DNA from: Cirrosporium novae-zelandiae
Lineage: Eukaryota
Reading direction: 5' to 3'
NCBI GenBank assembly: GCA_026023565.1
Contig: JAPETS010000026.1
Span: 1 to 64,000, forward strand
Length of the DNA stretch: 64,000 nucleotides
A program made the position numbers and the translations under genes. Numbering within the stretch: the first letter of the stretch is position 1; every line of letters begins with the position of its first letter. The notes under the pieces were generated by a model. That model made no database searches, was not told the origin of the DNA, and was given only the letters and a program-made list of their open reading frames with translations. Positions 739 through 47,220 of this stretch are shown piece by piece.

Positions 739-2586
739 ATGAAGCAGTACATCCAATCCGTATCCCAAAATTTCAACAAGACATTGGCTCTTTCTTGTAG
801 TCTGATTGCCCTCTCGACATTTAACTATGGCTTCGATAACCAGGGATTCGCGACGTCACAGGCGATGGATGCCTTTGCAAAACGATTCGGGGTCTGGAAT
901 GAGGAAGACCAGGAATATGAGCTAGAGGCTTATTTCGAGAGTCTGCTGAACAGCCTGCAGTACATTGGGTTTGCCGTTGGTATGAAATAACCCTTTCTTT
1001 TCATCGTACGTTCAATTCTTGTTATTGCAGGATGTTATTCGCTAATATAACTACCATGTTATAGGATTGTTAATAGGCAGCAAGACAAGTTCGAGATTTG
1101 GGCGAAGGATGTGCATGTTCTGCATGAGCTGCTATGCCATTGTCACTGCAACTATTGTCATCACCTCGCAATCAAGATGGCAGATCCTGTGTGGGCGGAT
1201 TCTCAATTGTGCAGTTGAACTTTGATACCTTCGAGATGGTACATTCCTCGGTCGTTAACACCTTTTGTAGATGTTTATATCGGCATGGAGCTTTCTGTGG
1301 TCCTTGTCTTTCAAGCAGAAATAGTTCCTGCATCCGTACGTGGGATGATTGTGGGAACATATCAATTGAGTCTGATAGTGAGTGTGTAAGCATACCTCTT
1401 TTCGATAGATGTGTTCTAATCGCTTTGAGAACAGCTTGGAGGACTCGTTATCAATTCGGTCTGTAGAGCCACAAGCGTAATCCAAGACGATAGAGCATTT
1501 CGGATTCCTTATGGCCTCTTCTATATCGTCCCAACAACTATACTGTCTCTGATATGGTTCATCCCGGAAGTATGTGCTTTCAACCTAGTATCTGTCTTCA
1601 CAGACTAAAAGTACTCTCTGTCTCCAGTCACCACGTTGGCTACTCCTTCAAGGCAGACTCGAAGAGGCTGCTGCAAGCCTCACGCGTCTCCGTGCCGGCA
1701 CCCTCTCCGAAGTCGAAATCATGGAGGAACTAGAGGGCCTCCGTCTAGGTTTAGTGTCCGAGGAGGAAAAAGGCCAGTTTGTAGAACTCTTTCAAGGGGT
1801 GAACTTCAAGCGCACAGCCATTGTTGTGGGTACGCATTTTTTCCAGCAAGCGACGGGCCAGGCCTTTGTATCGCAGTATGGAACACTGTATACAAAGCAG
1901 CTTCATTCCATCAACGCATTCGATGTCACCATCATTACCGCCTGCATCAATGCGGTCACGAACATGTTTTGTCTCATCATGAATGATCGGATTGGGAGAC
2001 GGTAAATCTACTCTTACCTTTTTTCGTCCTGCCATAATGTGTAGCACCGCTATCAAGTCCAAGTGCAACTAACACTTCAAACAGGCCTCTCCTGTTGGCC
2101 GGATCAATTGTGCAGATTGCTGGGCTCTTTACAATGGGCGGCCTGGGAACACCCGAGACCATAACCCCAGAAATGAAATCCGGGATCGTTGCCTGCCTCA
2201 TCGTCTTTGCCTTTGGCTTTTCCTTAGGCTGGGCACCGCTCACATATGTAGTCGCTTCCGAAGTTCCTGCCTTGAGACTCAGAGACATGTCCCAACGAAC
2301 AGCCGGGATGGTCAACATTGTCACCAGTTTTGTTGTGGCATTCACCATCCCGTATCTCTTGTACACTCCATACGCTGCCCTTGGTTCGAAGGTCGGGTTT
2401 ATTTTTGGGTCTCTTGCATTCCTCAGTCTTATTTTCACCTATTTCTGTGTGCCAGATTGTAAGGGGAAGCCTCTGGAGCAGATCGACAGTTTGTTCCATC
2501 AAGGTGTGCCGGTTAGGAAATTTAAGAGCGTGCCGTGTGGGTTTGATGGATATGGAGAAAGAGGACGGAAGGGCGTGGATATTTGA
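739..2586 (+). CDS. MFS sugar porter (maltose/alpha-glucoside permease-like), about 6 exons
   Basis: Spliced reading gives MKQY...STFNYGFDNQGF...SRFGRR...CGRILN...QAEIVPASVRG...FIPE/SPRWLL...FFQQATGQAF...DRIGRR...LGWAPLTYVVASEVP...VPDCKGKPLEQID. GT-AG introns at about 980-1064, 1209-1270, 1378-1434, 1570-1627 and 2002-2084. Confidence 0.92.
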
Positions 2587-5074: not shown

Positions 5075-7292
5075 TTAAACTGTCCTTTCAACCTCCATCT
5101 TCTCCACCCCTTTCATACCCTCAGTCTTGCCCCTCAATTCTTCCTCAATGGCTCTCATTCGAGCCTTCTCCTCAACCGCTGCAGTGTCTCCAAACACAAC
5201 ATCCATATCTTCTAAACTTCTGCCCCTGGTTTCTGGAACAAAGAAAACCGTGAATCCAAGCGCCAATAGACAAAACGCAGCGAAGAAGATGTAGGTGCCC
5301 CATTCGATGGAGGAAAGCATGTCAGGAGTCACAAGCCCAATGATAAAATTGCACATCCATGTGGCCGATGTGGTGATGGACATTGCTTTGGAACGGATAG
5401 AGAGGTTGAAGATTTCAGAGGGAAGGACCCAACCGATTGGAGCTATTATCCTCAGGAAAGGTTCGATTAGAATGAGCTCTTATATTATTGTTCTAAGCAA
5501 TAGGAAGTTATAGTTCAGGAGAACCGGTGAAAGACTTACCAAATGAGTATGAGAAGTTGATATCGTAAATGTAGACAAAGGCAATGCCAACCCAACCTGC
5601 AGTCTTGTGATCAACTAGATCTGACCCATATTTTCCGATAATGGCTCCGACAATGACGAGTGAGATACAAGTTCCTATGGAGCCGCACATTAGTAAGACA
5701 CGGCGGCCAACTTTGTCGATGAGGAAGAGAGCTGGGAGTGTGCTGAGGGTGTTGACAATGCCGTAGACACCCGTCGCTAACAAGGAACTGGTGTTGCCGC
5801 TTAGCCCTAGCTGACCGAATATGGTAGGAGCGTAATAGATGATCGCTGGGTTACATGTAAATATTAGCCACTTATTGGTGCCTCATAATTGAAGGTGATC
5901 AGTGGCGGCTCACCATTGCAACCCATAAATTGCTGAAAGAACATGATGCAACAACCAATAGCGAGGCGTCTAAAATTAGGCCAGGTATTCACAAGCGACA
6001 CGTACTGCGCGACTTCAAGCTTGACCCCACTCATGTTGCCATGAAGTTCCTTGATATGCGTCTGTTCAAACAATACTTCGGTCTTAATGTCCAGATATTC
6101 TTGCTTTAACAGCCCATTCTCTCTATCCAGTCGTCTCAGCTTCGACAAGGCGACCATAGCATCCTCATCGCGGCCTCGCATCAACATCCATCTAGGCGAT
6201 TCGGGAAACATGAACATCCCGATGCCCAAAATGAGGGCTGGGACAATCTGGAGAGCGAATGGTAGGCGCCATGATACTTCAGATTGGCCGGTGCAACCGT
6301 CAGGGCCAACATCGTGACGAGGATCGAAAGTACGGTCTGAAGCGGTGCCGCCGGAGTAGGGAATAGAAGGATCACAACGAGTACCACCAATAAAGTGCGT
6401 GCCGTACTCAATCCAATATGAGAGGAGGATCCCAAGTGTAATAGATACTGTTGATCGTTGTCAGGGATAGCCCTTTGAAGACACTCATGAAATCCGACTT
6501 ACATTGTTGAAGGACTATAAGTGTACCACGGACACGAGGTAAGGATACCTATGTAAAATTAGCCGCAAGTCATCTTTAAATGAAAAGGATCCACCAATAA
6601 GTACCTCTGCCATATACATTGGGACAATTGTCGTTAGCATTCCCACTGCTAAGCCCGCAATAGCCCTTCCTAGCAGTAATTATGATAGTATCAGTAACCT
6701 GTGTGATTTAATTGTTGGTGTTAAGAAATAACCCACCAGCGAAAAGCATGGGTATGGTCATAGCAGCCGCCTGCAATGTAGATCCGACAGTAAATATACA
6801 AACAGCAATTTCCATGGCAAATTTCCTGCCCCATCTGTCTGCCGCTGGTCCGTTTAGAAGCGATCCAAACCAGGCAGCTATATTTTATTAATTCATTGCT
6901 CTCATTAGCCAACGGCCTTTGAAATAGTTATTTCAGAAGTTGACCAGCCTTACACAGTAGAAGTGTCGAAACAAACCATCCTTCGAAGCCGCTATCAAGA
7001 TAGATCCGAGGAAACCTGGCTCCGAACGACTCCATCGTCAACACCTCGGAGATGGCACCTTGATCATAACCAAAAAGGAAACCACCAAGAGATGAGAACT
7101 GGGCCCTCGCATGTCAGTTGCATTTGTATCCAGGAGTAAGGGAGTCTCACATACCGCAGTTACACCAAAAATATAAGGATTTTCCAAGAGAAGTCGTCTA
7201 ATGCTCTTTACGGGAGCATCATCCATACCATCTTGAGCTGCAGCCTCATTAGGCGAGACAGCATTCACCTCGTTGACTTTTGTGTCGGTCAT
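5075..7292 (-). CDS. MFS sugar porter (monosaccharide/H+ symporter family), multi-exon
   Basis: Spliced reading gives MTDTK...NPYIFGVTA/FSSLGGFLFGYDQG...FPESPRW...FFQQFMGCN...IDKVGRR...SITTSATWMCNFIIG...FVPETRGRSLEDMD, which are the sugar-porter signature motifs. Confidence 0.93.
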
Positions 7293-7457
7293 ATTGTTGT
7301 CGTCGAGTTGATGTTATCCAAAGATTGGAGACGCACTGGGGGACCGAAGTGATGGAACTGGGGTAGAATGCCCCATCTTTTATAGATTGGATCTTTCATT
7401 GTGGAGCGATATGCGGGGAGAGTGGAATTTGGTTGCTTTGGTTGATGAATCCCTGCC

Positions 7458-7474
7458 CGGAGTAGACCAGTCCG
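7458..7474. promoter_or_regulatory. Gal4-type UAS CGG-N11-CCG (CGGAGTAGACCAGTCCG)
   Basis: Exact CGG-N11-CCG in the divergent porter/kinase promoter, about 75 bp upstream of the porter TATA box (CTATAAAAG on the minus strand at ~7377-7385). A repeated CGGAGTAGA half-site follows at 7487. Confidence 0.7.
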
Positions 7475-7678
7475 GAGAATCTTGTACGGAGTAGAACAAG
7501 AGTTGGTGTCAAAGTTGGTCGGTGCTAGGCGCTATTTGCATCTAGAAATATTTTCCCCACATAACAGGAGCGAAGTCAGCAGACTTGAACACTAAAGAGA
7601 ACCCTGGTAAATTTCTTGCACCCGTCACCGTCTTAGTTTTGTCTGCTGAGCTGCTCACCAGACGACTCGTCTGTTTTG

Positions 7679-7695
7679 CGGACCACTGTGCTCCG
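7679..7695. promoter_or_regulatory. Gal4-type UAS CGG-N11-CCG (CGGACCACTGTGCTCCG)
   Basis: Exact CGG-N11-CCG; 14 of 17 positions match the classical consensus CGGAGGACTGTCCTCCG. Confidence 0.75.
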
Positions 7696-7914
7696 CAGGG
7701 TATTGATCGGCAATTATTCTGAAAAGCTCCTTGACAATGAGAGAGAATGCAACTAAAATTATTTATCATGACCTGAGGAACCTTTCCTTGATCATGAGAT
7801 TGATGACAATGAGTCCGTATAGATGGTGAGCTCTCATTGTCTCTCATCCGTCCTTCTCTCGTTTTTTATCTTGTTCATTTACTTATACACGTCACATTCA
7901 ATCTCAAGCCCGTT

Positions 7915-8601
7915 ATGGATGCTATATATTCAGTCCTGACTGAAAGAGCTCGAAAGGCAGTCCGCCAGCTCTCCCAGAGCGAACAGAGACGGGCTGTGAT
8001 TGCTCTGGCTGGCCCTCCAGGATCGGGAAAGTCCACAATTGCAGCCAAAGTTGTGAAGAATCTCAATGACCAGGCTACGCGGCCATTCGCTGTTTCGGTG
8101 CCTATGGACGGATTTCATCTTTCACGAGCGACATTGGATAAATTACCAAACCGTGACGAAGCGTATGCAAGACGTGGAGCGCCATGGACCTTTGATGCAG
8201 ATGGGGTGCTGGACTTGGTACAACATCTTTGTACTTCTCGAGCTCTTAATATCGGGACCATATTAGCACCAAGCTTCGACCACGTCATGAAGGACCCTGT
8301 GAAAGACGCCATACTGATTCCTGAAGATTTTACCTTGGTTATTTTGGAGGGAAATTATCTCTTACTGGATCGAGAACCTTGGCGACAAATCAACGAACTT
8401 GTGGACGATACCTGGTTCGTAGATGTTGCCCCAGACTTGGCCAGGGAGAGAATTGCAAAACGGCATATCAAGAGTGGAATTGAGCTGGACTGGACAAGCG
8501 CTATTGCTCGAGCCGAGAGCAACGATATTTTGAATGGGGCTGAGATTCGGAAATATCTTATCAAACCTTGTATTACTGTTCAAAGTGTGAATGTAAGATG
8601 A
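7915..8601 (+). CDS. P-loop kinase, phosphoribulokinase/uridine kinase/PanK family (YFH7 / YggC / FrcK-like)
   Basis: Single exon. Walker A IALAGPPGSGKST plus family motifs VPMDGFHL, RRGAPWTFD, PSFDH..KDPV, ILEGNYLLL and AESNDILNG. The likely start is the ATG at 7915. Confidence 0.9.
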   Translation: MDAIYSVLTERARKAVRQLSQSEQRRAVIALAGPPGSGKSTIAAKVVKNLNDQATRPFAVSVPMDGFHLSRATLDKLPNRDEAYARRGAPWTFDADGVLDLVQHLCTSRALNIGTILAPSFDHVMKDPVKDAILIPEDFTLVILEGNYLLLDREPWRQINELVDDTWFVDVAPDLARERIAKRHIKSGIELDWTSAIARAESNDILNGAEIRKYLIKPCITVQSVNVR

Positions 8602-9064
8602 TATTCACGTACCTTAAATTTGATTGGCAAGTGTTAAAGGTAGTGAACTTTAGGATTCGGCTTCGATCTTGTCAGTGGAAAAGGATGGCACTCTTTACCG
8701 AGCAGCCGCCGTTAGAGTGATGGCATGACGCCTCTTCTAGGGGCAGAATACGACTAAGCTTAAGTTGGATGGGTTAGACAAAGGTACTTTATTGTGCGTG
8801 TACCTAGGTAGATGGATGACTGCTGCCATGGAACCAAGGTTGGTGGAGGAAGCTTTGTAGCATTTTACTCCCCTATAATACATAGTACACAGTGCAAGCT
8901 CCAGTACACACTTGAATTAATTTTATATTCTAGTGCATGAAGCCCTCCCCAAAAATTATAATATGAAGAATTCATTTAGATCTAGTTGTTTTCACTTCTA
9001 CCCATCGAAAGTAATATATACCTAGGTATATAGCTATACATAATCCAGATTACTTCCCGATAAA

Positions 9065-11424
9065 CTACTCTTCCCTAAATTCTGGTTGTTCTAGATCTGG
9101 CCAACTCATTAAACTTATTGGGTCACTCCCAGATGCCGACCACAGCGAATATATATCACCAAAAAGGTCTGTTTCACCAACCCCACTAAGGGTCCCGGAA
9201 TCCTCTGCTGCATTGAACGGTTGTGTTACCGAGAGCCTACTAATAATCTCCAAGCACCTACGGGCTAATCCATTCTTGGGACTTACTTGCATCAGTAGTG
9301 CCTTGACTGTTTTAATATCATCCAGCCACTCTGGGGCGGCAGGGTCTGTCGGTATTGTCAGGAGGAAGATTAACGGGATCAGTGAAGCTTGAAAGAGGAA
9401 GAAGAGCGTATACCAGCCCCCCAATCGCGACATAGTCTCATAACTACTGATATACTCTTGGATAGACGTAATTGTATTACGAGCACTCCTCAAGCAAAGC
9501 TCTCTGCATTGCTTATGTTCTGGCTGATTGTCGTCCTCATGATCCTCCAAAGAACGATGCCCAAGACCGATACGTTGCATAACCCAGGACAGGACAATTG
9601 GTCTGGTGAGGATGATACGGAGATTCCAAGCACGCCATTGAAGTCGATAGCGAGCAAGAGTAAACCATTCGTTGGCAGAAGGCGATGGAACCGAAGGTTG
9701 AAAATACCATGGTAAATTAGCATTCCAAGAGTCAATGGATTTATCAAGGGTCAGGGTCTCCGAGGCAGTGAGAGGATGAATGGCAAGAAGGCGGTTCGAG
9801 ATGGAGTTTGTCGAGAGATGAAAGGTAGACTGTGCAATGAGACTAGAATAAAGAGTTGGTTCGGAGACTTCATGGGGTACGATCTTTGTGGCTGGTGTAA
9901 GAAGCTATGGACAGTCAATATTTAATCCTGTTACTCACCATTAATGAGTATAAAGAGCAAATACCTCATCTGGAATATTCAAGACATGTTCCACATCGAC
10001 AATGTCGCTATCTGGTAGTAAGATGGGTCTCCCAAACGTGGTACTTGCTCCACTATCAAAAATAAATAACCCCCACCACACTCTTCTTCTCATTTCCTTC
10101 TGGAGAAGGCTAATATTCCAGTCTGGAAATTCCCTATGGAGTCCCAAGCTGACCGCCATTCTCACTGCAAGCCCCAAGTAGTTCCACCCCGTGTTTGGTC
10201 TATTACGTTTCTGGGCATAGTTGCTTAGCAGTAGCAGTGCCTGGACCATAGCTATGCTCCCCGACTCGAATATACTCTCATCCTCTGAATAACGGCGTGC
10301 TTCACGATAGAATGCATCGTCGAGATTGGAATTTTCGTTACCGGTGGTCCAGGCCCCAAGTGCAAGGACAGAATTAAGAAGCATGTGCCACGCATGTTTC
10401 TCAGGCCGTTTAATCAGCTCATTATACTGTGCTCGAAAGGTGGGTTCGTGTATGAAAGGGTAGGTAGTATGGTAAGAACGAAAATAAGCATCAATCAGAG
10501 AACTAGTAACTTGGCGTGAAGCTGCAGAGTCTGGCATTTGTATGATGGATAACGGAGCTAATTGTTCCGGTGGTTGAGAGGAAGTATGATCTTCCCGTGG
10601 TTGAGGGGGGATGTTGATGTCCCAGCGACAGAAGAGGAGGAATCGGAGAAGTACGACAGCAGACGATGCACCTAGATAGAGGTTTTAGATCAGCAAAAGT
10701 TTCAAAAGTTTTGAGGTGGTGCCTGACCAAGGTATCCTGTTCCCTCAGGTTTGATTGAAAGTGCGGCCATGCCATCCGCTAGGTCATCAAATGCAGCTTC
10801 CTTTTCAGCCCAGTCAAACCCATCAGCTTCTTGAGGAAGAGTCTCTAAAGGTAGATCCGAGGAGAGGTCGGAATCCCTCCTCTCGGCTGTGACCTTGACC
10901 CTCTTCGATTGCGGAGCTCCATCTTTGGACACTGGTAGTTGTATTGGAGGCGATAATTCAGACGATGAAGACAGGACAGATTCTATCTCAACGTTCGGCA
11001 GAAGGTTCGTAAATGCTGCTTCAAGCTTTGCTAGGCGGCGTTCCACATTGGTTAGATGCCTGAGACCATGGACAATCAGAAACCAATGCACCAAATATGT
11101 TATATTCCCTATGAAATTGAAGCGCAACTCACTGTCGTGTCAACGGGCTTCTTGATACGGGAAGACTATAGTGACATTTTCGCCCATGCTGAATACAGGA
11201 CGCACACGACGGTCGTTCCTTTGGACACTATTGGGCCCGTCAAAATCACTTCTTCCCAACTCACGGGATTGAAAGAGTCGGCCCACTCTGTATTTTCGAA
11301 TCCTGCATTCATCGCACTTGAATGTGGAAAGGTAGGATCAGCCATTTGCTGGTTAGAGTCCTGATAATAGCAGGACGCTTACGGCAATGTTAGACTTTGA
11401 ACTGGTGGGAGAGGCTTGAACCAT
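9065..11424 (-). CDS. Gal4/Lac9-like Zn(II)2Cys6 transcription factor (GalX-like) with fungal-specific TF domain
   Basis: Exons 11424-11383, 11316-11287 (30-nt micro-exon), 11227-11133 and 11059 onward give ACDECRIRKYRCPKERPSCASCIQHGRKCHYS...RSPLTRQHLTNVERRLAKLE, close to Gal4 [20 protein letters not shown]. Also GFDWAE..DGMAAL..GYLG and the Fungal_trans motif GLAVRMAVSLGLHRE...EMRRRVWW. Confidence 0.92.
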
Positions 11425-15135: not shown

Positions 15136-15285
15136 ACTTAGCAAATAAATATGAAAAGTTGATATCAAAAATGTAAATGTAGACGAAAGCTATGCCAAAC
15201 CAACCGGCAGCCTTATAATTCAACTGGGCCTAGGCCATTTTCCGGTGATGGCTCCGATAATGACGAGTGAGATGCAAGTTCCTAT
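15136..15285 (-). pseudogene. Degenerate duplicate fragment of the sugar porter exon at 5534-5678
   Basis: acttagcaaataaatatgaaaagttgatatc[aaaaat]gtaaatgtagacgaaagctatgccaaaccaacc...atggctccgataatgacgagtgagatgcaagttcctat aligns with acttaccaaatgagtatgagaagttgatatcgtaaatgtagacaaaggcaatgccaacccaacc...atggctccgacaatgacgagtgagatacaagttcctat. Indels are present and the splice donor is mutated. Confidence 0.85.
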
Positions 15286-15428
15286 TGGGAGTGGCCCGGC
15301 TCTCGGGCTCAAACAAGGTTTCTTCCCCACCCCAAATTCTGATATTAGATAACATCTTGAAATATCACGTCTACTCGAGTAAAGGGTGCAATATGAACTA
15401 CAGACAAGATAATAACTAGTCGTACAAC

Positions 15429-24123: not shown

Positions 24124-24797
24124 TTAGGAGCTCGAGGTGACGGAGCCGCCTTTTCTGCCTGCTTCGACGGCTCGAGGGTCGCCAGGTTCAAAGGAACCGC
24201 TGCTGGCGAGACCGCCTTTGTGTGCGATTTCTTGCTAGAAAGGTAAAGAGAGCAGTGTTAGTAGTGTGTTTGACTGAGGGGGGTTAGGCTGAGGAGAAGA
24301 TGTGAGATGAGGTCAATTGGTATGGTAGAGAAAGCGCTGAGCTGAGGTAAAAGTCGTAGGCTGATTGACACATGTACGATAGAAACAGAACAAGAAGAAT
24401 GAATAAGACATACCACCTTCTCCGTAGGCATAGAAGCAAACCCCCCCGAATGACTAGCCTTCCCACCCTTACTCGCAATCTCCCTGACCTCTTCGGTCGG
24501 ACGATTAGCGAAATTCCCAGGATTTCCATTTCCAGGAAGTGTCTCTGTCTCTTGCTCTTCTCCGTGGATGGGAAGGCCGTGAGCTGCCTTGCCGCCCATG
24601 CTTGCAATCGCTCCCACTTCTTCCTTGGGACGATTGGCAAAGTTTCCTGGGTTTCCATGGCCGGGAAGGTTTTCTTTTTCTTCGTCTGTGTGGATGGGGA
24701 TGCCATGAGCTGCTTTGCCGCCCATGCTAGCGATTTCTTTGACCTCCTCGGTGGGACGGTTGGCAAAGTTTGCGGGGTTATTACTTGCAGTAGACAT
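24124..24797 (-). CDS. con-10: Conidiation-specific protein 10-like (KGG-motif stress protein), 2 exons
   Basis: Three NP(A/G)NFANRP.EEV..IAS.GGKA repeats. After an intron the last exon reads QEIAHKGGLASSGSFEPGDPRAVEAGRKGGSVTSSS*. Confidence 0.88.
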
Positions 24798-25310
24798 TGT
24801 AATTGAATGTAGGGTTTGTTCGGGAGTTAATAGTAGAGATAAGTCGAGTAATGGAGATGCTTGGTGTGAAGAAAAATAGAAAATTAGAGAAAGATGAAAG
24901 GGAAGAAAGGTTGGAAAGACAGTGAGTTATATATCCTTTAAATGGGTAGGCAGCAAGAGGCAGCAAGAGGCATGTCTCTAGATCACCTGAACTGGCGCCC
25001 ATTTCGTCAACATGACGATAATAGGAAACAAAAAAGTCCGAGGTCATCGCGTTCATGCGGGGAGAGACGCAGCAGCCTAATTTATATAATTCGCAGATAT
25101 GATCGACAATGCAAAAATACGTCAGACATTTCCAACGGTCAAGGATGTGGCTGGTAGGTACGGTAAAGTGCGAGGCGAGTAGAGGGGTAGGTCTTGGCAG
25201 GGGAATATACAGTACCGCTTGCATACACGGTACAGCACTTTCGAGGTATCCAAATTTTGAAAAATTCATCACACGTGTATAATACATCTCATCTAGTCCA
25301 TCTCTTACAT

Positions 25311-42280: not shown

Positions 42281-44866
42281 TTAAATGACAATATATTCTC
42301 CTTCACCGGGCCGTAATACCATCGCTGTTCTCCATTTAAACCCCTGAATCGCTGAACTCTGATTCGGCCCAACACAGACGGGAGATTCCTTCCATATCTG
42401 CTCCAAAAGTCGTAAAACTGAAATGTTATTGTAGAAACCCGAATCTTTTTGAATGTCTAGACATCGTTGCCTGACTACCTGGCGATCGATAGCCGTTACG
42501 CATTCCGAGCCAGTAACGAAAAGAGGCCAGAGGAGAAAGACATCGGATTGAACTTTTTGTATATAGTCCAAGGCCTGACGTACCCATACTTGTATATCAG
42601 GATGTGAAGATGGTTTGGAAGGGTAGGCAAGACGCTCGCAGTATATCAAGGCAGAGTAACGGAATGATTCGGAAATATTTGAAACATCATCACGGTTGGG
42701 TCCGACCATTGCAGCACAGGGAGTATTTGGATTAACAGGATCCATTTGCCACTGCAATAAACTTGTTCGAACGGCATTGTACTCTGACCAGAACTGGGCA
42801 CGGTTCTCTTCAGGAACTGCCAACGGTGTGGCTCCATTTCCAGGTCCTGCCCAGTCTTGACAATCAAAGTCACTGTAATTCATAAAGTAAAAATCACCTG
42901 AAAAGGAAGGGATTTCCATCGAAGGGTGTGTTGGCCTCATGGGTCTCGGAATTGCAGAACCATTATCCATTTTTTTATTTTGGCCAAGGAGATTCAACTT
43001 GTTGAGCTGAGCTACAATCTTGAAGAGGCGACCATCGCATCCTGCCAGGTTCTCCAATGCCCACTCATCGTCACAGAGGGCAGCCATGTTAATGTGGTTC
43101 TCCTGTAGCTGTCCTTCTCTGTCGTTGACCGTAGCAGTCATGGCATCGAAAAAGGTGAACATGGTTACAAACCACTTGATGCGTTGTGATAATCTTCCGG
43201 ACCCACCCTCCCGCAAGCCAAGCAACTTCCTGACACCAGCAAATTGAGTTTTGAACTTTGCAACTCCGGAATCACAAATGTGAAATAGGCAGAGAACCAG
43301 AAGTGTTGCTAGAGTTGAGTCATCCAAGACTTTTTGTGGGTCTGACAATTCACGGTTGAGGGCTTGAATAGAGGCACCCTTGTGATACCTCTCTTCATTG
43401 GAATCATCAATTGCCTGAAACAGCTCGACATTGTTTCTTGTATATGCACAAAGTCTTTGATGAGCATCCGATGACCTCCGAGCTGGAGGGGTTTTGCCGG
43501 TTGATAATGCTTTCTGGTCTCTTCTTATCCTTAGATTGGTGGCAGACAGAGCGGCAATTGCATGTTGCAAGGTTTCACTCTGCGCCGCCAGAGGTAATAT
43601 ATGGGATCGATAAGGATTTGTTGGACCATCGAATGCAACAATAACAGGGGATATGACTTTGTCGAAGTATTCGATCAGAAATTGCATACGTGGCGTTGAG
43701 CCGAGTGCAAGCTTTGGTGTGTATCTGGATAAATCTGGCACTGCATAATACGTCCCGTCAACAAAACCAACCTGGCCAGGAAAATCATTGCGTGTGATGG
43801 TTTCAATATCATCTTGGTCCCCATCTCCATCAACTTCTGCTATTCTTGTCAAGGGTTGATATAGACTCGGCGTGACAAAATATTTGCTAGTCTCCTTTTG
43901 CCAGTCGTATCCACCATCATATTCTCCATTGTTTATTGGAATGGTTCCAGGGATATAACCAATATTTGGCTGATACCATTGAGTTGGGACTGAGGTATTG
44001 AAGTTGGTTCCAATCTCATCATCTAGATCCTCTGCAATAAGAGGTAGATGCTCTTCCGACCCAAACGAAGTATTGAGGCCAGTAGGAGCGTCATGAGGAG
44101 ATGAATTTAGGACCGGTGGGCTGTCGCTGAAGGTGGAACTGGAAGATGAAGCAGCCAATCCGTCTGGACTCAATGCCTGACCTGAATTCGTGGGATATCC
44201 ATGCTGCAGAGGGGCCGCATGTATTTGTTGCGAAGACGAGGTTGAAGAACTAATTGATTCTCGAGGATTTTGTGGAGGGTTTTGCAAAGGGTTCTGCAAG
44301 GGCGTTTGCAATGAATTTTGTAAAGGGTTTTGTAGAGTATTGTGCCATTGGCTGGTTGTTTGCGGAAAGTTTGAAGATGATGGAATAAGATCGGGAAGTG
44401 GTTGTTGGGATTGTAAACCTGAGATCTCGCTAGAGGTTGAGTCGCTATTATACACTGCGTTTGATGGATAACTTCGAGGAGGTTTCGATGAACTAGGTAC
44501 AACAACGCGATGCGAAGGAAGTGTGCTTTTCTTATGGGCATGTCCCAAAACGCCAGATCCAGATTGCTTCTTGTTAGGAATGGGAAGAGAAAGCCCTCGC
44601 AACTTTCCTCGACTCGCTACTCCTACTCCCCAGGTGAGCGTTGTCTTGTATCCCGAGCAGTCCTTTCCAATTTCTAAGCATTGGGAGCAATATGGCCTTC
44701 TTCTGTCGCATTTGATCTTTCGATTCGCGCAGGTGAAGCAGTCCTCAGCAGCGCCTGTCGCCGGTGCTCTTCTTCTCCGTTTTCGAGGTGCAGTGGCTGA
44801 TAATTTCGGGAGGGAGGATTTCCCACTGGTCTCTTGGGTTGGGTTTTCCGACATGATGGATGCCAA
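42281..44866 (-). CDS. Zn(II)2Cys6 transcription factor, ACR-2/SfgA-like (Fungal_trans_2 domain)
   Basis: CFTCANRKIKCDRRRPYCSQCLEIGKDCSGYKTTLTWGVGVASRGKLRGLSLP, SPVIVAFDGPTNPYR, FLLWPLFVTGSEC and terminal GEYIVI. Confidence 0.9.
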   Translation of the reverse strand: MASIMSENPTQETSGKSSLPKLSATAPRKRRRRAPATGAAEDCFTCANRKIKCDRRRPYCSQCLEIGKDCSGYKTTLTWGVGVASRGKLRGLSLPIPNKKQSGSGVLGHAHKKSTLPSHRVVVPSSSKPPRSYPSNAVYNSDSTSSEISGLQSQQPLPDLIPSSSNFPQTTSQWHNTLQNPLQNSLQTPLQNPLQNPPQNPRESISSSTSSSQQIHAAPLQHGYPTNSGQALSPDGLAASSSSSTFSDSPPVLNSSPHDAPTGLNTSFGSEEHLPLIAEDLDDEIGTNFNTSVPTQWYQPNIGYIPGTIPINNGEYDGGYDWQKETSKYFVTPSLYQPLTRIAEVDGDGDQDDIETITRNDFPGQVGFVDGTYYAVPDLSRYTPKLALGSTPRMQFLIEYFDKVISPVIVAFDGPTNPYRSHILPLAAQSETLQHAIAALSATNLRIRRDQKALSTGKTPPARRSSDAHQRLCAYTRNNVELFQAIDDSNEERYHKGASIQALNRELSDPQKVLDDSTLATLLVLCLFHICDSGVAKFKTQFAGVRKLLGLREGGSGRLSQRIKWFVTMFTFFDAMTATVNDREGQLQENHINMAALCDDEWALENLAGCDGRLFKIVAQLNKLNLLGQNKKMDNGSAIPRPMRPTHPSMEIPSFSGDFYFMNYSDFDCQDWAGPGNGATPLAVPEENRAQFWSEYNAVRTSLLQWQMDPVNPNTPCAAMVGPNRDDVSNISESFRYSALIYCERLAYPSKPSSHPDIQVWVRQALDYIQKVQSDVFLLWPLFVTGSECVTAIDRQVVRQRCLDIQKDSGFYNNISVLRLLEQIWKESPVCVGPNQSSAIQGFKWRTAMVLRPGEGEYIVI

Positions 44867-47220
44867 AACCGAGCGACCAACTGCTCAATTCGAGGCAATA
44901 CTCGTGGTAGGGAAATTTAGAGTGACGTTTAAATATCAATGGGTGAATGTTGATCAGTCAGTATAAAGGGAAGTGATGGAAGTATTAGTTATGTGGTAAA
45001 GCCGGAGTCGCTTAGGAACAGCCAGGAATATCTGAAGCATTATGAGGTCTTCGCATGTGCTTGAGACTTGGAGATTAATCAATGGATTGATGGATTGATG
45101 GATGAATTGAGAATGCTCAGGTAGGGGTTTGATGAACCCTTGTCGGATTGTTTCTTACCCCGGCGATGGGTTAGATTTCAGAAAAGTTGATATATTGATG
45201 TTCGGTTGAAATAGAGATTAAGGATAATGGGGGGATAGGACTGCAAGTGGTAATTGAGTGATAATATGGTCTTCTCCGCAGTGGAGATAATGATCAAGCT
45301 TCACAGAGTGTTTAAAGTGCGTCCCTTAACTTACGAATGTGCCGAGGAGAGGATCAAGAAAGCACTGGAAGACCAGCAGAAGGAGACCAGAAAACCAAAT
45401 GGTGGACAGTGCTGAGATTGTAGTTTCGAAAAAGAGAAACAAAAGAAGTCAATAGTCCAATATAATCCAATGCGACTTTAGAATGATGAGGATAACGTTC
45501 AATAGTGTCTTGGGGTGGTCTTGGAAAGTATCTGCGGCCTTTCTGCGGGACCTGGGGGTAAGAGTGGCGCTGTTAAGTTGTGGTTACAATACGCTATACT
45601 CTGAAGTCTCGTAGTCTGTCGGTAGTCTTTGGTCGTCTCCCTTGTCGTCGGTCCTAGTCTGTTGTAGTCTCTTGTAGGCTCGCCGGGGATGTTATACCCG
45701 ATCCAACCGAAGTGAGAGCAGACCACCCAACAAGTTAATTAGTCGACAATAGTATTAGATATCAGTTGGAACTTCGGAACATGTAAGATTAAATAATAAT
45801 GATGATGGATGATGATGGATTAAAATAGATGGAACGATGGGAGACGGAAGATGGAAACAGAAGAGAATAATAATAATAATAATAATGGATGATTCAAATA
45901 AATAAATAATCCTGTTGCTCAAGTGCCATGTATAATAAGATGTATATGTATTATGTATGTATTATGTATGTATCATGTATGTATATTATGTCTATACATA
46001 TTACTGTATGCTACAGTAATTTATCCCCCCCCTCCTCCTCTTCAAACAAATGATGAGGGAGCAGTGTACATGTACCGAGGTATGGTATGGGCCGAAGGGG
46101 TAGCCGACAGATAAACAGCCACACACAGCCCCTACCAATGTCAAGGTCCATGGGTACTCGAGTAGTATTAAAACAATCCCGAGATTAATTAATACTTTCT
46201 TGCAATCCAATGGTGGAATCGCCGGTTTTTACACCAATCCTTGTCCCTGAATGATGAGGAGAAGAATAACGAATTCACCATTTTGTCCACACCACTGGCT
46301 CAATATAGTACTGCTATCTAATCGGACTTGCCGTCAGCGGCTGACTGCCTATAGGTGAATTGCAAACTTTTTTTCCGACGGGTATCATTGAAGCAATGAG
46401 CAATGATTCCGAAGATGAAGATGAAAACGAGGATAAATCCACGCGTACATGAAAAAAGATACAAGGAATAAGATAAATATCCTGGACGGACATGATAGGT
46501 TGCCGACAGTGGGGGTCTTGATTGATAGGGATGTTCTTGATCTTCAATCTCACATTTTGCAGCATTCCCGTCGTGCCCGTCCCGTGTGAACCTTCTTCGG
46601 CTTGTGGAGATGATGAGAAGGATGCAATGCATCATTCCCCTCTAGAAAGGCCGTAGAAGATTAGAATTTTAATTATTACTCTAAGGAGAGGTCAATGCAT
46701 GACATGACCACCTAGTAAAGGTACTTTAAGGAAATACTTAACTTGATCAAACTCTTAGCCTTGACGTCAAATCATTTTTTTCTGCTGTTAATTATCCAAC
46801 TTATCGCCCTTCCCCATACTTTAGGATTCGCAAGGCTGAGTGCTCACGTCTGTAACACGCCTAATGATTCCTTCTACCCTTTAAAGCTTTGTGGCTGTAC
46901 TTGGTAGGCTGTGTGCATGTACAATAGAAATTGCCTAGAGTGCCTTAAAATCAAGTAAGGCAGACAAGACAGTTAATTCCTTTCTGTATAGAAAATATAG
47001 GAAGTGTAAATATCTATTTCTTTCATACCTATTCCATCAAATCCCACATGTTTTTTGTTGTGGAAACTTTTCCAACCAATCCCATATCAACTAGACCTCT
47101 CATAAATTTGTCTTTGTCTCTTCGTCGCTGATAGTTACTAAGATCCGTATCATTATTCCTTTGCCCAATAACTATCCATCCATCCTTGATCCACTCTTCT
47201 CAAACCCTCTTAGCACCACC

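Follow-up and report, generated by a model that had tools for sequence, protein, structure and literature searches.

Cirrosporium novae-zelandiae, represented by a metagenome-assembled genome, is an isolated lineage of the class Xylobotryomycetes without a close sequenced relative. We examined 64 kb of this genome (contig JAPETS010000026.1, positions 1–64,000; hereafter the window), in which three genes at 5075–11424 resemble parts of the yeast galactose and lactose systems. A Gal4/Lac9-type zinc-cluster regulator and a sugar porter follow each other on the minus strand, and a P-loop kinase of the YFH7/FrcK/YggC family lies between them on the opposite strand, divergent from the porter. In the GAL system of Saccharomyces and the LAC system of Kluyveromyces, Gal4 and Lac9 act on CGG-N11-CCG sites in the divergent GAL1–GAL10 and LAC12–LAC4 promoters. 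A Gal4/Lac9 relative in Pezizomycotina that has one particular sugar porter as its constant partner provides a handle on the role of Gal4 before the yeast GAL regulon. The kinase is of interest in its own right, given that structures in the YFH7/FrcK/YggC family have been solved for years with no substrate in print. A preliminary description of this DNA had placed the three genes, the promoter between porter and kinase and its two sites where we find them.

The porter gene runs from its ATG at 7292 to its stop at 5075 on the minus strand, and encodes 580 amino acids (aa) in eight exons (7292–7155, 7098–6954, 6877–6737, 6669–6605, 6548–6503, 6447–5914, 5845–5540 and 5442–5075) separated by seven GT-AG introns. 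The Pfam profile Sugar_tr of the major facilitator superfamily (MFS; PF00083) matches three of the exons with E values of 6e-20 to 2e-26 and is covered from profile position 145 to 452. The spliced model is collinear with fungal sugar porters, with 69–73% end-to-end identity to P0124, P0125 and P0127 (from Exophiala, Rhizodiscina and Aspergillus), and the profile match and the collinearity together place it in the sugar porter family. The public model of the gene, P0121, retains one intron and looks wrong. A look-alike porter cluster carries the automatic name 'STL1', which we treat as a lead only and not as a substrate assignment; neither an A. niger transportome paper nor the literature on one candidate gene id linked the porter to a substrate. 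Further along the window, at 15137–15330 on the minus strand, there are two short pieces, in frame, with similarity to the C-terminal half of proteins of this porter family (identity to P0125 of 77% across 26 aa and of 50% across 30 aa). They look like the relic of a second porter copy upstream of a TYW1-like gene, and hint at past local duplication or rearrangement.

The regulator gene (9065–11424, minus strand) has six exons (11424–11383, 11316–11287, 11227–11133, 11059–10728, 10671–9965 and 9904–9065). Introns split its Zn2Cys6 cluster into three pieces, and the spliced model of 681 aa restores the complete cluster with all six cysteines of the pattern CX2CX6CX5-12CX2CX6-8C. The linker and dimerisation peptide quoted in the preliminary description, RSPLTRQHLTNVERRLAKLE, follows the zinc cluster in this model. 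The model is collinear with P0247, P0276 and P0255 (Aspergillus niger) at 50–52% identity, and matches the Pfam profile Fungal_trans (PF04082) with an E value of 3e-37. The Pfam profile Zn_clus matches the orthologue P0247; no single exon of the window is long enough for it to match. On Gal4_dimer (PF03902), which has a cut-off of 22 bits, the window exon reaches 21.3 bits and the orthologues 29.5 bits. The sole PDB matches of the window's dimerisation exon are Gal4 chains, and these are weak (E values of 0.08–0.28, all above 0.001). The orthologue P0247, by comparison, aligns without gaps to Gal4 residues 6–85, across the zinc cluster, linker and coiled coil, with an E value of 1e-19, and to Lac9 with 4e-15. 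In Gal4 it is this linker and coiled coil that fix the 11-bp spacing of the half-sites. The gap-free alignment bears out the earlier reading of a Zn2Cys6 factor with a Gal4-like linker and dimerisation segment and, on its predicted architecture, the regulator is a true Gal4/Lac9-type protein. The public model P0241 takes as its start an internal ATG that is out of frame, has no zinc cluster and looks wrong.

The preliminary description had brought in Aspergillus GalX as a comparator. This is a poor choice, given that GalX, according to excerpts of a review (PMC5468973), is 20% identical to Gal4 and has no orthologues outside Aspergillus. We considered whether the regulator could be GalX and rejected it on the same two reported properties: the regulator's family spans several fungal classes, whereas GalX is confined to Aspergillus. 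The excerpts of that review cover only GalX and GalR, and we found no paper on a Pezizomycotina Gal4 orthologue and its porter in a search that left most subscription journals outside.

The kinase gene (7915–8601, plus strand) is a single exon encoding 228 aa. The protein matches the Pfam profile PRK (E value 3e-8) and, among NCBIfam profiles, the PRK09270.1-2 models with E values down to 1e-49, compared with 8e-10 for uridine kinase and 1e-8 for pantothenate kinase. Its 168 bits on the PRK09270-type model lie under the 227-bit equivalog cut-off, which we read as distance and not as exclusion because these models were built on bacterial sequences. The best solved relative is yeast YFH7 (PDB 2ga8, E value 1e-33), and 3c8u, a bacterial chain with the deposited name 'fructokinase', matches with 3e-22. 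YFH7 (2ga8/2gaa) is an orphan P-loop kinase in the group of PRK, uridine kinase and pantothenate kinase, with which the window kinase shares motifs beyond the P-loop (MDGFH, RRG.P.TFD and P.F.H..KDP); unlike YFH7 (359 aa), the window protein is without long insertions. In an alignment of 18 fungal sequences 64 columns are invariant, and the window kinase agrees with every one of them. With the P-loop, the family motifs and best matches to the YFH7/FrcK/YggC models (NCBIfam PRK09270, COG1072), the predicted protein belongs to the orphan YFH7/FrcK family, as had been proposed. A sugar-kinase role, presented at that stage as new for the family, was already on record: one row of a 2011 comparative-genomics table (PMC3223725) gives 'sugar/polyol kinase' as the prediction for the family (yggC, At1g03030), noted there as work in progress. 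Beyond this table row, the listings of papers on YFH7 and yggC gave nothing on a substrate.

Porter and kinase diverge from a spacer of 622 bp between their start codons (7293–7914), which agrees with the promoter of about 620 bp described before, including its two perfect CGG-N11-CCG sites. One site (CGGAGTAGACCAGTCCG, 7458–7474) lies 166 bp from the porter ATG and 441 bp from the kinase ATG, and the other (CGGACCACTGTGCTCCG, 7679–7695) lies 387 bp and 220 bp from them. Together the sites span 166–403 bp from the porter ATG and, because the kinase lies inside the regulator–porter spacer on the opposite strand, 220–457 bp from the kinase start codon. The motif is common in itself, given that 9 of 100 shuffles reach the window's count of nine sites (4.97 expected), and most of the nine fall inside coding sequence. 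Two or more sites in the spacer are nevertheless a rare outcome, seen in 208 of 200,000 first-order Markov simulations (~0.1%), and the spacer holds the only pair of sites within 622 bp of each other, and the only intergenic pair, in the 64 kb. We consider it probable that the regulator controls the adjacent porter through these two predicted sites.

The association of regulator and porter extends well beyond this genome. Homologue lists comprised the best 120 of 391 porter matches, 120 of 355 regulator matches and 120 of 1,732 kinase matches, and linkage was judged from longest-contig values and names rather than coordinates, with the possibility that some porter matches are paralogues. Among the matches listed, regulator and porter carry consecutive locus tags in at least seven species (Emergomyces africanus, Aspergillus tanneri, Penicillium soppii, Rasamsonia emersonii, Chaetomium olivicolor, Thermocarpiscus australiensis and Conoideocrella luteorostrata), are separated by a single tag in at least two more species (P. 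capsulatum, between N7492_007558 and N7492_007560, and Fusarium solani, between FSOLCH5_013725 and FSOLCH5_013727) and lie on contigs of equal length in at least 19 species. A fused gene model from Achaetomium (P0348) has the regulator domains followed by the porter domains on one strand, the same order as in the window. Given the consecutive tags, the equal-length contigs and the fused model, the predicted regulator–porter pair is old and widespread in Pezizomycotina. Another fused public model, P0351 of Fusarium nematophilum, joins a FAD-binding monooxygenase-type domain to the Gal4-like factor, which suggests a different neighbour on the upstream side of the regulator in that species.

The surroundings of the kinase family were followed in metagenome loci. 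A kinase relative is encoded by 148 of 596 matching stretches, from which 80 loci were kept; a quick tree retained 78 of these, two being dropped for short matches. Six loci group with 12 fungal proteins in a eukaryote-type clade (support of 99 in the Shimodaira–Hasegawa-like approximate likelihood ratio test, SH-aLRT), and in two of the six, L001 and L005, the kinase is accompanied by a Gal4-like factor, a sugar porter and polyol dehydrogenases. The order in L001 (46% G+C) is a medium-chain dehydrogenase/reductase (MDR) of the sorbitol-dehydrogenase/ketose-reductase type, divergent from the kinase, then the kinase, a short-chain dehydrogenase/reductase (SDR), the sugar porter, a second SDR of the fungal mannitol-dehydrogenase/carbonyl-reductase type, the Gal4-like factor and a housekeeping gene. 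The factor is 43% identical to that of the window in the best segment. L005 (68% G+C) has a sugar porter, a mannitol-dehydrogenase-type SDR like the second one of L001, and a Gal4-like factor in which the linker signature recurs and which diverges from the kinase across about 400 bp. Two candidate promoter signals in these loci were set aside. The dehydrogenase–kinase spacer of L001 (1040–1525) contains two CGG-N10-CCG sites (at 1249 and 1375), a post hoc find among 84 classes of spacing and orientation to which we give no weight, and the one N11 site in the regulator–kinase spacer of L005 matches the chance expectation at 68% G+C.

Carbohydrate-related neighbours are also found in 23 of the 64 remaining, apparently bacterial, loci with at least one neighbouring open reading frame (ORF) scanned. 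A sugar ATP-binding cassette (ABC) transporter lies directly upstream of the kinase in six, a long-chain mannitol dehydrogenase beside it in four (one also with a PfkB sugar kinase, one with an SDR) and an MFS sugar porter directly downstream in three (one preceded by an SDR). The rest of the 23 include lyxose isomerase, xylose-isomerase-like barrels, transaldolase with two dehydrogenases, PfkB, phosphofructokinase, ROK, LacI-type regulators and glycoside hydrolases. The kinase family recurs with sugar and polyol genes, repeatedly but not always, and the earlier statement that its relatives lie in sugar or polyol loci stands. As recurring neighbours, the sugar ABC transporters, MFS porters, mannitol- and sorbitol-type dehydrogenases and fungal Gal4-like factors narrow the panel of candidate substrates for the kinase family to ketoses and polyols. 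Two of the bacterial loci have a layout that resembles the sorbitol/mannitol oxidation locus described for Sinorhizobium: mannitol dehydrogenase, PfkB kinase and FrcK-like kinase in L067 (3–2647), and SDR, mannitol dehydrogenase and FrcK-like kinase in L064 (115–3063). Because a standard fructokinase-type gene adjoins the FrcK-like gene in L067, the two kinds of kinase seem not to be redundant.

Among described systems, the frcBCAK fructose-uptake operon of Sinorhizobium meliloti likewise has a kinase of this family (PRK09270) adjoining a sugar uptake system (PMC10433430, in excerpts), and the six loci with an upstream ABC transporter share its transporter-then-kinase order. The operon differs from the window in that its transporter is an ABC system and not a proton symporter, its host is bacterial and FrcK is not the fructokinase, as the excerpts report. 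They also describe an frcK mutant with poorer growth on fructose, on mannitol and on sorbitol and with about half the fructose uptake; the substrate of FrcK was not apparent to the authors in 2023.

The likeness to the GAL and LAC systems is closest in the control elements. The zinc cluster, linker and coiled coil of the regulator's orthologue have the same length as in Gal4, the two 17-bp CGG-N11-CCG sites lie in a divergent promoter of a few hundred base pairs, and this promoter lies between a permease gene and an enzyme gene. In contrast to GAL and LAC, the regulator adjoins its presumed targets, the enzyme partner is an orphan P-loop kinase, and no Leloir, beta-galactosidase or Gal80-like gene is seen in the window. 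Our scan covered 69 stop-to-stop ORFs, each at least 110 aa long, out of 83 listed in the window; the other 14 are shadow frames overlapping scanned ORFs, and short exons could escape such a scan. Within that scope we found no Leloir-type domain, in agreement with the preliminary description, and no Gal80-like oxidoreductase fold, and the scanned ORFs thus give no sign of control of galactose or lactose genes with Gal80-type inhibition. The Aspergillus oxido-reductive pathway offers a further comparison: its D-galactose genes under GalX are ladB, a gene for an L-xylo-3-hexulose or L-sorbose reductase, and sdhA, according to excerpts of two sources (PMC9151342, PMC5468973). L001 has the enzyme classes of this pathway (the sorbitol-dehydrogenase-type MDR and two SDRs of the mannitol-dehydrogenase/sorbose-reductase kind) together with a porter and a zinc-cluster factor. 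The window is without these dehydrogenases, and the pathway ends with hexokinase rather than a YFH7-like kinase.

We interpret the locus as a variant of a Gal4-type sugar-utilisation locus, and not as a demonstrated three-gene module. The core unit would consist of a Gal4/Lac9-type activator gene and, next to it on that strand, the gene of a proton-coupled sugar or polyol porter. A dimer of the activator would bind both CGG-N11-CCG sites upstream of the porter gene and turn this gene on when the transported compound, or a metabolite of it, is present. From its position in the regulator–porter spacer on the opposite strand, the kinase gene could be driven by the same two sites together with the porter, in the manner of the divergent GAL1–GAL10 and LAC12–LAC4 promoters, and its product would then phosphorylate the imported compound, or a ketose made from it, and trap the phosphate ester. 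We give this reading as a whole, in which a co-regulated kinase joins the regulator–porter pair and uses the imported compound or its ketose, a probability of roughly 0.4. Whether the kinase belongs to the regulon of the porter is close to an even bet; the common upstream sites and the family's repeated company of sugar genes speak for it, and the shared promoter hints at a role of the kinase in sugar or polyol use.

Several observations count against including the kinase. Among the matches listed, six species (Dactylonectria estremocensis, Cadophora sp. M221, Xylogone sp. PMI_703, Pseudomassariella vexata, Thelonectria olida and Phialocephala subalpina) occur both for the kinase and for the regulator or porter, and not one of them has the kinase on a contig equal in length to that of regulator or porter; the consecutive tags in seven species mean that no annotated gene lies between regulator and porter there. 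A kinase inside the regulator–porter spacer thus appears to be a feature of this genome only, among the species compared. The preliminary description had seen a self-contained module of three genes and had counted a lack of linkage in relatives as evidence against it. This applies in part: regulator and porter are linked, the kinase is not in the six species compared, and what is conserved is the pair. Four of the six eukaryote-type metagenome loci have no sugar genes nearby, with housekeeping neighbours in L003 (mitochondrial porin, DnaJ and M24 peptidase) and L007 (Sec61, Utp12 and WDR3) and nothing sugar-related among the neighbours of L002 and L004. Even L001 and L005, with porters 25–36% and factors 30–43% identical to those of the window in the best segments, are related clusters and not the same cluster, and L001 has no intergenic CGG-N11-CCG site. 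In the window, the scan found no dehydrogenase, isomerase or aldolase near the trio, and hence the undescribed non-Leloir pathway envisaged earlier does not emerge from it; the upstream region of the regulator itself has no CGG pair of any spacing. For the bacterial relative, the excerpts of the 2023 Sinorhizobium study (PMC10433430) report that the fructokinase is Frk and not FrcK, and that FrcK did not complement its own mutant.

Much of this would be expected if only regulator and porter work together and the kinase gene, with some general role in the cell, came to lie in the spacer as a passenger in this lineage, where it may use its own core promoter independently of the sugar supply. The locus would then be an ordinary regulator–transporter pair. 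We regard this as a serious possibility, somewhat short of even odds. It accounts for the separate contigs in all six comparable species, the consecutive regulator–porter tags in seven and the housekeeping surroundings in L003 and L007; it also fits a family conserved between bacteria and yeast, including motifs beyond the P-loop, a conservation that suggests a single shared substrate, and the relic porter fragment at about 15137–15330 points to local rearrangement. It sits less well with the window, L001 and L005 as three independent fungal loci in which the kinase, a Gal4-like factor and a sugar porter occur within 10 kb, a combination with a chance of well under 1% per locus by a rough estimate from gene-family sizes that was not computed. 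The operon-like links to sugar and polyol genes in other loci, and the typical activating distance of both sites from the kinase start codon, also favour co-regulation of the kinase with the porter. A different doubt concerns the sites themselves, which might be chance matches or targets of another zinc-cluster protein, with the adjacent factor controlling genes elsewhere. There is precedent in Candida albicans, in which Gal4 is reported to act on glycolytic and not on galactose genes. The motif is not rare, with nine mostly coding occurrences in the window, L001 has a related factor and no intergenic N11 site, and the excerpts of the review (PMC5468973) mention that Gal4 has been rewired among yeasts. 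Nevertheless we find this unlikely, given that two sites in one 622-bp spacer are a ~0.1% event, that the spacer adjoins a factor with a linker and coiled coil that can be aligned to those of Gal4 without gaps, and that the deep regulator–porter adjacency is most simply explained by regulation in cis.

A more far-reaching proposal, which we offer as quite improbable speculation, is that YFH7/FrcK/YggC proteins are the missing dedicated kinase of polyol-to-ketose routes, with a ketose outside the usual range of hexokinase as substrate (such as L-sorbose, L-xylo-3-hexulose, D-tagatose or a ketopentose), and that such routes in fungi are under true Gal4 orthologues. The ancestral task of Gal4 would then have been a porter with a polyol/ketose module rather than the Leloir pathway, with the window as a minimal form and L001 and L005 as fuller ones.

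Three other features of the window lie outside this locus. A second sugar porter at about 1589–2583 (plus strand, with a probable start further left) matches Sugar_tr on two exons with E values of 1e-19 and 6e-26. At 23–28% identity to the relatives of the first porter it is unrelated to it; it lies ~2.5 kb past the 3' end of the first porter, and its promoter falls on the edge of the window or outside it. An ORF at 24261–24926 (minus strand) has three KGG stress-repeat motifs (PF10685, E value 5e-35), a profile described for bacterial acid-stress proteins. Another Zn2Cys6 factor, of the Fungal_trans_2 type, is encoded at 42284–44884 (minus strand), with a lone CGG-N11-CCG site at 45684–45700, about 800 bp upstream of its start.

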